Part shown: positions 35,276 through 38,134 of the stretch, piece by piece | Layout: each line of letters opens with the position of its first letter | Position numbering within the stretch: the first letter of the stretch is position 1 | Virus record (IMG/VR): IMGVR_UViG_3300048672_000524 | Span: 1-64,000 of that record | DNA length: 64,000 bases | DNA from: a virus | Lineage: Duplodnaviria; Heunggongvirae; Uroviricota; Caudoviricetes | Reading direction: 5' to 3' (one strand) | The notes under the pieces: model-generated | What the model was told of the DNA's origin: nothing | Databases searched by the model: none | Seen by the model: only the letters and a program-made list of their open reading frames with translations | Translations under genes and position numbers: made by a program

Positions 35276-35399
35276 ATTATAAATGTCCGTAACATACGAG
35301 TCAGTTACTGGCTTTCGCCAAGTGGTTAGAGTGTAAGTCTAGAAGTATCTGAATCTATCAACAGGACGTAACTAGTAGTCTAGAAAAATTTGTAATAGT

Positions 35400-35600
35400 G
35401 TGGCAAACCATTTGCCAGGTTCGGGGGCTAGAATACATAATACACTAGGCCCCGAACCTTGGGATCGAACCAAGAAGTAACTATTAACGACGCTAAGACT
35501 TAAGAAAGAATAGTAACAACTTATAACAGCGTTTTTCGCCAAATGAAGTAACTGTTATTAACAACATATTCTTTCTTAAGTCTTATTTAAGACTTAAGGA
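35400..35600 (-). ncRNA. candidate Y-RNA-like / tRNA-like noncoding RNA downstream of the Ro60-like gene
   Basis: T-arm mimic CTTGG-TTCGATC-CCAAG with no acceptor partner; 16-bp perfect hairpin (35418-35468); repeated GAAGTAACTG(A/T)TT boxes; 18-bp inverted repeat 35490/35581. Confidence 0.35.
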
Positions 35601-36138
35601 GAGTGAGAATGTCCAACTCAGGAAGAATTCAGGCCCTCTGGTTTGTGTGTGCAAACCATACTTGCTACTCCCACACATACTCTCTCATCTATACTAGGAT
35701 AAATCTTCGTATAGGATTTCGTACACTATGCCTAGTATACTGACCTCTTCTTGCCGGCTGCTTTCGGTTCCCAAAAGGGCGAGGATTTGACAGTAATAGC
35801 TTAACGTGTCACTACTCACGGTACCACTCTCTCGCTCTGATAGGCTGGCTACTATCCCTGGCGTGGATTTTATGTCGGAACTTTTACACAGACTGGCTAC
35901 TGTCGTATTTGGTATCCTCGTGGGCTATGCCCAATTGAGAGCTTCGACTCTACTCGATGGCCCCTTCCCTAAGGCTTTCCACGAAGTTGTACGTTCCTTG
36001 GTGGTCTTATCGCTTCTTAGTTTAGCCATAACCCTATTACTAGGATGTAATTACCGAATTTATTGCCACGTCTAGGCCTTGTGTTTGAATAGGAATGGGT
36101 AGTTAGCTTTCCCCCGGCCATTCCTCACAGTATCGGAG

Positions 36139-37467
36139 TTATTGAGAAAGACCGAAGTCCTTTTCGAACATCTGAATGTAATCTACAATAGCTTCACTGA
36201 AGCCAGAGATAGAGTTCCATGCAGCATGGTTAATACCATTTTCGTAGCTAGCTACGTTGATGATATAACCCTTAGCACCAAAGGCAGGAACTGCTGGACG
36301 ATCAGCGGACTGTTCGTCAGTGAACACAATGAAGCGATCACACTTTGTAGTGCTAACTTGAGCTAGAGAACGACCTAGATAGGTACTTCCGTGTTGTTGG
36401 CTATTACGAATTGCTTCGATAAGAGCAAAACCACGACGTGCTGGAACACGCACTGCACTTCCGCTAAATGAGTAGATTTCTACTTCTTCACAGATTTCAC
36501 GGCATAGTACCGCTAGGGCAGCTGCTGCGTCAAATCGTTCTAGGTCTGACTTAGCTGAAACCTTGGCACCGAACATTGAGCCCGATACGTCGATTAGCAG
36601 CTTAGTAGTACCTGGAAGCTTTTCCATGCCTTCCAGGCTCTTTAGCATCATACCTTCGAGCATGTCCTCAAATTGAGGTACAATGCGAGCCGCTGCAATA
36701 TAGCGGAAAGGCAGAACCTTGCTTGCGTCTACATTTTTAGCGTAGTCGCGAATGGTAGCTTCTGGCACGCCAGCTTGAACCATATTGCGCAGGTTACGTA
36801 GGAACGCTAGAGCACCAAGCTTCTTGGAGGCCATTAGACCTTCAAAGGTTTCTCGCTTGTCAGCACCAGCAGATAGTTTGGTTTCCCAAGTATCTGGGGT
36901 CTCTAGGGTCTGTGATGCTACGCGCTTGAATAGCGCTTCCTGAGCAGCATTCACAGGCTTTGGGTGGCATAGGAACATAACATCGCGCAGTGAGATTGCT
37001 GCGCTGTTCTTATCCCACTTGGCTAACGAATACTCGTTAAACTTACCAAAGGCTTGGGCAAGACCCTTCTTGACCTGGTTCGCAAGAGGAGTCTTACCAT
37101 CCTTCCAATATAGCGAAAGGAATTCTGACATTTCGTCAGGACGCTGAATAACACTATTTAGTGTTTCGGCGGTTAGCCGACCATTACGGGCCAGCTCGCG
37201 GGTTAGTAGCAGAGGAATGTGACGTAGCTTGAACTTAGTACGAGCTACTTCAGCAAGACGAGAAACAAAGTTCTTGTCTACATTCTTTACTAGACCAGCG
37301 ATAATATCTGCGGCCTTTTGGCCGTCGATGTAGAATTGATCTTCCCATAGCATTGCAGCTAGGGTAGTACGAACAAGTTTCTGTTCGTTAGAGGTTGAAG
37401 GAACCTTAGCACCTTCAAAGGTTTGAGCGTTAAAAGGACGACGAACAGTACGATTTAGGCTTGACAT
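36139..37467 (-). CDS. rsr: Ro60/TROVE-domain protein with C-terminal vWA domain (Rsr-like)
   Basis: ~300-aa helical N-terminal region followed by a vWA fold with MIDAS motif LLIDVSGSM (DxSxS), as in Ro60/Rsr; flanked by tRNA-like ncRNA modules. Confidence 0.55.
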   Translation of the reverse strand: MSSLNRTVRRPFNAQTFEGAKVPSTSNEQKLVRTTLAAMLWEDQFYIDGQKAADIIAGLVKNVDKNFVSRLAEVARTKFKLRHIPLLLTRELARNGRLTAETLNSVIQRPDEMSEFLSLYWKDGKTPLANQVKKGLAQAFGKFNEYSLAKWDKNSAAISLRDVMFLCHPKPVNAAQEALFKRVASQTLETPDTWETKLSAGADKRETFEGLMASKKLGALAFLRNLRNMVQAGVPEATIRDYAKNVDASKVLPFRYIAAARIVPQFEDMLEGMMLKSLEGMEKLPGTTKLLIDVSGSMFGAKVSAKSDLERFDAAAALAVLCREICEEVEIYSFSGSAVRVPARRGFALIEAIRNSQQHGSTYLGRSLAQVSTTKCDRFIVFTDEQSADRPAVPAFGAKGYIINVASYENGINHAAWNSISGFSEAIVDYIQMFEKDFGLSQ

Positions 37468-37479
37468 TTTTTGTATTTA

Positions 37480-37640
37480 CAGTTTAAAATTTAATGGGAG
37501 AAAAAAGCGAAACAGATAGTTTAGTGCTCTACCAACTGAGCTACTTTGGCCTTCTGGGCCGCAGGGTGGACTCGAACCACCGACCACTCGTTTATAAGAC
37601 GAAGTAACTGTTTCTATCGCAACCCGTATTAGGGGGCCCC
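37480..37640 (-). ncRNA. candidate Y-RNA-like element immediately upstream of rsr (permuted tRNA-like modules)
   Basis: on minus strand: T-arm GGTGG-TTCGAGT-CCACC, then GGCCAAAG-TAGCTCAGTTGGTAGAGC (acceptor+D-arm mimic), then hairpin + T-run; not a foldable canonical tRNA. Confidence 0.35.
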
Positions 37641-38134
37641 TTGTACCTATCATCCTCTGGATGGCTATGATTTCTTTCGAATACAAAGTATTACTGTGTG
37701 CATATCACAGGCTATATTTAATAATTGGTAACAGTATAATCAGAAATTGTGCACCTGGAACCACCTGCACATGATGGAATCGAACCACCTAGGTCTTTTT
37801 AAGCATAAATGAAGTAACTGATTAAATCAACACAACTAAGTAAAGTACCTGTTCGAGATTATTCGTTTTCAGGTTTTATCCGAATTTTTACCAGCTTCGG
37901 AATTATTTTACTGGCTTTGCAAGTCCACAAGGAACTAGCTTTTCATAGAATGATGTATCTGACTACATCGCTACGAAAGGTACTTTACTTAGTTGACATA
38001 GGGCCATAATGTCATAGGGGACGGGTCACAGCAATCCACACTGGTTTACTTTCCTAAGGTCTATGCCGGAGGTTGTTGTCTCAACCCATTTCATTATTAT
38101 AGATTAAATAGGACTTCAGTGCAAGTTAAAATTT

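Follow-up and report, generated by a model that had tools for sequence, protein, structure and literature searches.

Does a phage that encodes a Ro60-like protein among its tRNA genes also encode Y RNAs, the partners of Ro60 in cellular particles? The question is raised by 64,000 nucleotides (nt) of DNA from a virus of the Caudoviricetes (IMG/VR record IMGVR_UViG_3300048672_000524, positions 1 to 64,000; the whole stretch is called the window below). On its minus strand, an open reading frame (ORF) at 36139..37467 encodes a Ro60-like protein of 442 amino acids (aa), with a TROVE ring at about aa 27-278 followed by a von Willebrand factor A (vWA) domain that carries a metal-ion-dependent adhesion site (MIDAS). 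Ro60-Y RNA particles have been conserved between bacteria and humans, and human Ro60 is an autoantigen in lupus and Sjogren syndrome. To our knowledge, the cellular roles of these particles are poorly defined and the reason for their carriage by phages is almost wholly unknown. An initial annotation of the window, made from its letters alone, proposed that the gene and the tRNA-like elements around it form a Ro60-Y RNA module. The locus is most probably such a phage-encoded module, with five (perhaps six) Y-like RNA genes around the Ro60 gene; we infer its expression, RNA binding, partner and effect. The fold of the protein, the architecture and covariation of the RNAs, and their linkage to the gene in position and strand are established by the present analysis.

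The Ro60-like protein

The initial annotation assigned the ORF to the Ro60/TROVE-vWA architecture, and profile and structure searches agree with it. The Pfam TROVE family (PF05731) is matched at 46.2 bits against a cut-off of 23, with aa 188-270 alone in the aligned part, and Pfam vWA_Ro60 at 25.7 bits, slightly under its cut-off of 27.7. The MIDAS consists of DVSGS at aa 293-297 (within LLIDVSGSM), T362 and D384, and its residues D293, S295, S297, T362 and D384 are invariant across 55 homologues. The family phrog_850 of the PHROGs collection ("RNA-binding protein") covers the protein over its full length (E 4e-40), and the best phmmer match among PDB sequences is the Ro60 of Thermus phage phiLo (9l5y/9kop; aa 13-434, E 1.4e-23). 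An AlphaFold2 model built on 55 homologues reached a mean predicted local distance difference test score (pLDDT) of 82.8 and a predicted template modelling score (pTM) of 0.73. Foldseek aligned this model over its full length with phiLo Ro60 (9kop; template modelling (TM) score 0.77, E 1e-20), Deinococcus Rsr (2nvo; TM 0.70) and Xenopus Ro60 (1yvp; TM 0.69). The vWA part was matched as well, and plain vWA domains ranked far below the Ro60 structures. As modelled, with both the TROVE ring and the vWA domain that the initial annotation had predicted, the protein has the full Ro60 fold, a closed TROVE ring plus vWA/MIDAS, and this assignment holds.

Judged by its sequence, the protein is a member of a short, phage-type Ro60 branch (phrog_850). 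Metagenomic homologues of 435-445 aa are abundant, with 66-75% identity among the best matches listed, several of them on contigs of about 100 kb. Among cultured or assembled phages, 96 records contain homologues, with identities of 24-55%; the phages that bear them include those of Ralstonia, Xanthomonas, Microcystis, Brevundimonas/Caulobacter, Rhizobium, Streptomyces, Gordonia and Vibrio as well as crAss-like phages, and several of these homologues already carry a TROVE or Ro-like annotation. Hu et al. have reported that mutating eight basic residues of phiLo Ro60 (phiRo60) weakens its binding to the Y-like RNA Yrl2 (PMC12135203). These eight residues were compared here with the 442-aa protein, allowing for an offset of 8 between the numbering of the chain and that of the paper. 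In the phmmer alignment, K141, K142, R169 and R178 of phiRo60 correspond to K133, K134, R161 and K170, which are invariant or nearly so in the family; the other four of the eight are not conserved in the 442-aa protein.

Y-like RNAs beside the gene

The flanks of the gene (37468-38134 and 35296-36138) hold only ORFs of fewer than 90 aa, none with a family match, in keeping with the earlier statement that credible coding sequence is absent from them. Five Y-like modules and a doubtful sixth lie within 860 nt of the gene, all on its strand. Their common plan is a covarying terminal stem of at least 5 bp with a single bulged U, a YrlA-like motif on the 5' side, a second stem (stem 2) of 7 bp, and a box (UUAC + CUUC). 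The conserved single-stranded motifs beside the terminal stem are U-R-G-Y-G-W-W on the 5' side and UUGUU-C-Y on the 3' side.

The box had been noted in the initial annotation as a four-fold repeat. Its exact core, AGTTACTTC, is present on the strand of the gene at 35482-35474, 35553-35545, 37609-37601 and 37819-37811, the copy at 35474 being without the G of ...CTG. The window contains six matches to the core against 0.86 expected by shuffling (six were reached in 0 of 100 shuffles), and four of the six lie in the flanks of the TROVE gene. The flanks and 41 related IMG/VR loci, read together, revealed the nature of the box: the 7 nt ending in AG are always paired with a perfect complement 45-130 nt downstream. 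The 7-mer itself varies by copy, as in GAAACAG/CUGUUUC, GUAUUAG/CUAAUAC, AAGAGAG/CUCUCUU and GUUUCAG/CUGAAAC. Degenerate copies of the box are found at 35359-35342 and 37969-37952. Another at 35377-35365 does not count as a unit of its own, since it runs into the lower stem of the unit U7, and a box-like site near 35137, inside a conserved small ORF, was taken as chance.

The three T-arm motifs reported earlier (GGTTCGAnTCC, minus strand) are present in the flanks at slightly corrected coordinates, 35461-35471, 37568-37578 and 37776-37786. A fourth copy at 35204-35214, also on the minus strand, is part of an unannotated tRNA-Ser(GCU) and is not a mimic. The long perfect hairpins are likewise there, as inverted repeats of 19 bp (35494-35512 / 35567-35585) and 18 bp (37833-37850 / 37978-37995), together with a hairpin of 15-nt arms that are 93% complementary (35417-35431 / 35445-35459).

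The most complete unit is U3 (37491..37630, minus strand; full type), which scores 124.8 bits with the covariance model R1 (see below), for which it served as a seed. Its lower stem (37626-37620 / 37500-37496) has the bulged U at 37622; the loop CGAUA comes after it, and stem 2 (37614-37608 / 37515-37509) is followed by UUAC. Next come an anticodon-arm-like hairpin (37603-37587; 5-bp stem, 7-nt loop CUUAUAA, then UGGUC), a canonical T arm (37581-37565), a closed acceptor-like hairpin (37564-37544; its stem is of 7 bp in most homologues), the dinucleotide UA, a canonical D arm (37541-37526; GCUCAGUUGGUAGAGC) and a conserved linker. The acceptor and D-arm mimic of the initial annotation is therefore real, its two parts being the hairpin at 37564-37544 and the D arm behind it. 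Orthologues of U3 in related loci score 93-137 bits with R1. Chen et al. have proposed GNCGAAN0-1G as the Ro-binding site of YrlA RNAs and have described a conserved YUAY element (PMC4201824); the 5' motif of U3, UUGCGAUA, is similar to that site without being identical to it, and some relatives match it exactly, as at L027:1628 (GGCGAAGG; L numbers denote individual loci). The program ARAGORN places a 'tRNA-Ile(tat)' at 37556-37623, inside U3. This candidate was rejected, as it has no D arm, scores 23.6 bits with the Rfam tRNA model, below the cut-off, and takes as the 5' strand of its supposed acceptor the Ro-motif loop, which is unpaired in homologues.

The other units are plainer, and all lie on the minus strand. 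U2 (37720..37840; R1 49.9 bits, E 1.6e-11) has a lower stem with the bulged U, stem 2 (UAAUCAG/CUGAUUA), the box, a T arm (GGUGG UUCGAUU CCAUC) and one hairpin, with no D arm; its minimum free energy (MFE) fold recovers both stems and the bulge. U5 (35374..35503; R1 31.3 bits, E 2.3e-6; folding z-score -4.3) has the lower stem GUCU(U)AG/CUAGAC, stem 2, the box with a T arm immediately after it, the hairpin with 15-nt arms and a D-like hairpin. It has a clear orthologue at L002:2568-2676, with which even the hairpin loop is held in common. U4 (35505..35574; R1 38.9 bits, E 1.8e-8) is a minimal unit of stem, bulge and stem, seen in its MFE fold and as an inverted repeat. Its lower stem extends into the 19-bp repeat (35585-35567 / 35512-35494), and mini units of this kind, 70-76 nt long, are found in L001, L005, L010, L012 and L039. 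U7 (35281..35371) is the weakest of the five accepted units (R1 20.2 bits, E 1.3e-4, detected with filters off only). It has the lower stem GUCC(U)GU/ACGGAC, stem 2 (GAUUCAG/CUGACUC), a degenerate box AUACUUC and no T arm, and its MFE fold recovers the stems. The doubtful sixth, U1 (37848..37981; R1 12.9 bits, E 0.014, filters off; folding z-score -3.2), shows a bulged U in its terminal stem, together with the motif UAGCGAU, inside the 18-bp repeat (37995-37978 / 37850-37833). Its stem 2 is poorly paired, the UUGUU motif is absent, and no sequence homologues of it were found among the relatives. The full set of T, acceptor and D elements is thus confined to U3; U2 and U5 have a T arm only, and U4 and U7 have no tRNA-like part. 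The proposal of tRNA-like Y-RNA modules stands in that the units are Y-RNA-like by covariation, strand and YrlA match, and has to be narrowed in that a full tRNA mimic is found in one module only.

The model R1 was built from 14 units with their flanks; the terminal stems had been detected before that, by a model-free complement search. Over the window, R1 matched only true tRNAs, at low score, beyond the units listed. In 38 related metagenomic loci it gave 83 matches (E <= 1e-4) in 34 of the loci, every one on the TROVE strand, with one to five per locus on either side of the gene and mostly no more than a few hundred nt away. Standard pairs make up 93.8% of the cells in the R1 alignment against 44-47% when the partners are slid by 1-3 columns, and the covariation score is 0.557 against 0.05-0.11 in the slid controls. 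Double-sided changes occur at 31 of the 32 pairs, and all six pair types are found in each of the two terminal helices. Pairing reaches 96.6% in helix 1 and 95.5% in helix 2, the T, acceptor-like and D helices (helices 4-6) covary and are 92-99% paired, and helix 3, the hairpin before the T arm, is 70% paired, its register differing by 1 nt from one subgroup to another. Of 81 sequences, 80 have the bulged U, and UUAC is kept in 76-80 of 80. A short helix of YrlA style, closing the multiloop of the T, acceptor and D elements, was sought by inspection of the homologue alignments and is not conserved in them; helix 3 has the better support of the two.

As a control blind to TROVE, IMG/VR was scanned for AGTTACTTC-N15-32-GGTTCGANTCC. 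The scan returned 119 loci, and a TROVE gene was present in the retrieved DNA of 66, co-oriented with the motif in all 66 and separated from it by a median of about 400 nt; a flank too short to judge is common among the loci without TROVE.

Cultured phages with a phrog_850 gene extend the association. The family includes crAss001 gp96, CcrColossus gp139 and genes of RHph_Y65, Tenjo, Neville and Streptomyces phages, at 27-55% identity and often beside tRNA genes, and RNAs of the same Y-like family stand beside most of them. R1 gave three matches in Xanthomonas phage Tenjo (the best at 130 bits), seven in Caulobacter phage CcrColossus, six in Rhizobium phage RHph_Y65, one in Gordonia phage Neville, two in Microcystis phage Mvi-JY20 (one overlapping annotated tRNA genes) and one weak match in crAss001. 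None of these RNAs is annotated as a Y RNA. The match at L045 1667-1835, in CcrColossus (NC_019406.1), overlaps an annotated 68-nt 'tRNA-Gln', and that at L049 1958-2107, in Neville, overlaps the two tiny annotated ORFs gp89 and gp90; these are probably misannotated Y-like RNA genes.

Beside the array, a conserved structured RNA of another kind was seen at about 35935-36050 (minus strand), some 90-200 nt 3' of the TROVE stop codon, and is common only to the window, L002, L008 and L063. Its invariant blocks are CUAAACUAAGAAGCGAUAAGA ... AAGCCUUAGGGAAGGGG, and one of its helices covaries (UAUGGC/GCCAUC, UUCGAC/GUCGAC, UCUAGC/GCUAGC); an Rfam match and a consistent reading frame are both absent.

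Known systems, mechanism and rival readings

The nearest described relative is the system of phage phiLo. Hu et al. have solved the structure of phiRo60 (9kop, 9l5y) and have reported that it binds two upstream Y-like RNAs, Yrl1 and Yrl2, and that Ro60 and these RNAs bind the host PNPase and attenuate it (Nucleic Acids Research, 2025; PMC12135203). Both systems have a phage Ro60 with ring and vWA, that of phiLo being the closest match to the 442-aa protein in sequence and fold, and in both, Y-like RNAs of stem-bulge-stem type adjoin the gene on its strand; half of the mapped RNA-contact residues are kept. The two proteins, however, are only about 25% identical, and the one described here is shorter by about 50-60 aa. 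In phiLo two RNAs lie upstream, whereas five or six are placed on both sides of the gene here; the strict CGAA of phiLo contrasts with URGYGWW, and one RNA in the present array carries the whole tRNA mimic in permuted order. For phiLo, RNA and PNPase binding have been demonstrated, whereas the present module is known from sequence and predicted structure.

Likeness to the bacterial Rsr-YrlA/YrlB systems of Salmonella Typhimurium, Mycobacterium smegmatis and other bacteria is seen in the paired 5' and 3' ends and in the purine-rich motif of Ro type on the 5' side. As in YrlA, the YUAY element (UUAC in U3) is followed in permuted order by a V hairpin, a T arm, a closed acceptor-like stem and a D arm, within 4 kb of Ro60 and on the same strand; U2 and U5 have this order in part, and U4 and U7 do not have it. 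The last two are comparable to YrlB, a shorter partner RNA without a tRNA-like domain. Unlike in YrlA, a conserved linker of 10 nt (GCUAAAAUCU) stands behind the D arm in place of a short closing helix, the V hairpin resembles a true anticodon arm, and, unlike bacterial Rsr genes, the gene is not adjoined by an rtcBA repair operon. Metazoan Ro60 (Xenopus, 1yvp/1yvr) has in common with the present system its fold and, in its RNA, one bulged pyrimidine in the terminal helix, with conserved G-C pairs on its flanks. It differs in an identity of only 16-17% and in that metazoan Y RNAs are polymerase III transcripts without a tRNA-like module.

By analogy with these systems, a mechanism can be proposed. 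The Y-like RNAs would be co-transcribed on the strand of the gene, probably within transcripts of the tRNA island, and trimmed to stable RNAs. In each, the 5' and 3' ends pair into the bulged-U stem flanked by URGYGWW and UUGUU-CY, and this stem-bulge-stem would dock on the basic outer surface of the ring, as in Xenopus, Deinococcus, Salmonella and phiLo Ro60. The variable inner part, which in U3 is an almost complete tRNA mimic in circular permutation, may then act as an effector and link the ring with a partner in the host, for which PNPase or a tRNA-recognising enzyme is the precedent; PNPase is the partner in Deinococcus and Salmonella according to Chen et al. (PMC4201824). The ribonucleoprotein (RNP) may thereby redirect or dampen RNA decay or quality control of the host during infection. 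The role in RNA quality control or tRNA repair that the initial annotation suggested can at most be inferred. That the array is a toolkit, in which one ring is combined with five or six adaptor RNAs, from a bare binding stem up to an entire permuted cloverleaf with a mimic of the anticodon arm, each leading to a different tRNA- or RNA-processing enzyme of the host or baiting tRNA-targeting antiphage nucleases, so that the module and the phage tRNA set together serve counter-defence, is a speculative extension and appears improbable. Within that extension, the structured RNA at about 35935-36050 could be a further partner, of a non-Y kind.

Several observations weigh against a Ro60-Y RNA module. 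On the side of the protein, the NCBIfam equivalog of Rsr (NF041674) is matched at 27.3 bits against a cut-off of 900, with the vWA part alone aligned; the protein, a member of the Ro60 family, is because of this score not taken as a close orthologue of bacterial Rsr. For the RNAs, YrlA is the only significant Rfam family in the flanks in an E-value scan, and at gathering thresholds Rfam gave zero matches there. The presumed kinship with YrlA was upheld in that the match of RF02553 to U3 is significant (E 2.7e-4), and weakened in that its 32.2 bits are below the gathering score of 69, a score reached by no phage unit tested (34-56 bits in related phage units). The family consensus (e.g. UAGCGAU, UGGCGAA) fits GNCGAAN0-1G only loosely, and the putative binding site of U3 and U5 departs from the consensus at highly conserved places, with U for R in the pair beside the bulge and UUUUU for UUGUU. 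Folding z-scores are between +0.1 and -1.4 for four units, and only those of U5 and U1 stand out. The pair counts favour the structure of R1 because the alignment was fitted to it. About nine motif-bearing loci from the blind scan, each with flanks longer than 3 kb to either side, lack a TROVE gene, so that the RNAs are not strictly dependent on an adjacent one. Finally, no conserved protein partner encoded near TROVE, such as a repair enzyme, was found among the fetched loci.

Elements of the TROVE-less kind were observed in L068, L069, L092, L104, L117, L125, L132, L149 and L150 (IMG/VR), which have the box, a T arm and a Y-like 5' motif and no TROVE gene within 3-10 kb. Several of them, such as those of L068 and L117, resemble a 5' module of Y type fused to the 3' half of a tRNA ending in CCA. 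Such elements could be relatives that work independently of TROVE, or could depend on an Rsr of the host.

Among the rival explanations, the one that survives best is that the RNAs are tRNA decoys or sensors, in which the permuted cloverleaf baits anticodon nucleases or defence enzymes that modify or deplete tRNAs, and the ring shields or presents the decoy, complementing the tRNA set of the phage. The hairpin that precedes the T arm in the best-conserved subfamily consists of a 5-bp stem and the 7-nt loop CU-NNN-AA (15 of the 28 units with at least four paired positions) and is followed by AGGUC, which is the signature of a tRNA anticodon arm and variable loop, with GCU, GUU, UAU and UUU as 'anticodons'; the module also sits among tRNA arrays in this phage and in several cultured ones. 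The idea is nevertheless pure conjecture, no nuclease or antitoxin gene being linked to the module, and many units are without the hairpin or any tRNA-like part. Moreover, the equivalent YrlA hairpin is read as an analogue of the variable arm by Chen et al. (PMC4201824), and the only biochemistry of a phage Ro60 points to PNPase (PMC12135203). A decoy function is accordingly regarded as unlikely.

It is less likely still, and indeed very doubtful, that the protein acts mainly without its neighbouring RNAs, as a Ro-type factor that would thread misfolded precursors of the phage tRNAs through its ring and chaperone them or promote their decay, with the Y-like RNAs as gatekeepers or dispensable: Ro60 does bind misfolded RNAs in its central cavity (PDB 2i91, 9nep), and the gene lies among more than 22 phage tRNA genes whose products need correct folding and processing, but it is left unexplained why each locus has conserved three to seven distinct Y-like paralogues, and such an activity is partly compatible with a Ro-Y RNP and does not exclude it.

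The initial annotation had itself allowed that the flanking elements might be decayed tRNA genes, to which processing signals of a tRNA operon can be added (e.g. RNase P/Z punctuation that frees the TROVE mRNA), in either case unrelated to the protein. The position of the module inside a same-strand tRNA array, the ARAGORN call on part of U3, the near-canonical T and D arms, and the cleavage of M. smegmatis YrlA by RNase P, of which it is a substrate (PMC4201824), would fit this explanation. It is untenable, and given hardly any weight, because the conserved, covarying parts are the non-tRNA ones (the terminal bulged stem and stem 2), two units (U4 and U7) are free of tRNA-like parts, paralogue classes are kept across phages (e.g. 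U5 and L002:2568), and the RNAs track TROVE in unrelated phages, including some with few tRNAs such as Tenjo, with full co-orientation of the TROVE loci that were found motif first.

The Ro60-Y RNA module, as the preferred reading, is to be placed among earlier reports. Chen et al. have reported that 254 bacteria and 22 phages encode YrlA-like RNAs beside Ro60 (RNA, 2014; PMC4201824), and Iyer et al. have noted that some jumbo phages possess ROT/TROVE proteins accompanied by a tRNA-like partner (2021; PMC7824862). Given these two reports and that of Hu et al. (PMC12135203), the module is a further example of a known system and not a new kind. The claim that Ro60 had not been described in T5-like phages was overstated as regards novelty, phage Ro60 with YrlA-like RNAs having been reported in 2014 and 2025, and is sustained in so far as no Demerecviridae were seen among the TROVE-bearing phage records. 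A pairing of Ro60 with T5-like phages was not found in a literature search, in which the lineages of the 22 phages of Chen et al. were not compared. The present analysis adds the occurrence in a T5-like lineage, the size of the RNA array, and a usable model for a subfamily of phage Y RNAs that annotation has missed. Short phage-type Ro60 proteins with three to seven distinct Y-like RNAs are common in uncultivated phages, including a T5-like lineage. Their RNAs fall below the Rfam YrlA threshold, and in cultured phages such as CcrColossus, Tenjo, RHph_Y65 and Neville they either lack annotation or have been mistaken for tRNAs or small ORFs. R1 and the motif could serve in annotation and in the choice of cultivable systems (such as phages of Xanthomonas or Caulobacter) for work on the function of a phage Ro-Y RNP; by itself, the finding leaves the current picture unchanged.

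The tRNA island and neighbouring features

The window encodes replication genes (family-A DNA polymerase, DnaB-like helicase, SbcC-like, ribonucleotide-reductase and NAD-dependent ligase genes). The best matches of its DNA polymerase, at 51% identity, are in Vibrio phages classified in the Demerecviridae, and because of this the label "T5-like" is reasonable if a distant relationship is meant. No near-identical DNA to the region was found in 50,697 phage records, the phage itself being absent from that collection. PADLOC returned DpdH as its sole match, at 16.7 bits, which is not meaningful. The TROVE gene and its RNA module are embedded, as first described, in a tRNA island, in which more than 22 tRNA genes are arrayed on the minus strand at 25346-47130. 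Directly upstream of the RNA array lies a gene for a calcineurin-like phosphoesterase (phrog_547; 38135-38692, minus strand) with weak similarity to the ligase-associated PdeM. This family was found near TROVE in one fetched locus searched (L007), and the remaining neighbours vary, so that it is not a conserved partner.

The tRNA-Ser(GCU) mentioned above is probable at 35190-35275 (minus strand); its variable arm is long, its D loop is short, and its CCA is encoded. It was missed by ARAGORN and is under the Rfam cut-offs (29.5 bits with the tRNA-Sec model), and is about 90% conserved in L039, L009 and L010. The listed ORF 34987-35295 overlaps it; the true small gene probably starts at the ATG at 35190 and has 67 aa, conserved in L003 and L002. 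An extra tRNA adjoining tRNA-Glu, at 44602-44673 (minus strand), was detected by Rfam only (38.4 bits), and a 'tRNA-Ile(tat)' call at 41011-41102 (minus strand) is unusually long (92 nt) and may be misassigned. A group I intron match at 28777-28972 (minus strand; 60.7 bits) exceeds the Rfam gathering score. In addition, a permuted (two-piece) transfer-messenger RNA (tmRNA) is present at 25960-26419 (minus strand), matched by Rfam tmRNA_permuted at 118 bits and beta_tmRNA at 105 bits, and its tag peptide according to ARAGORN is ANDSIFEVRLAA.

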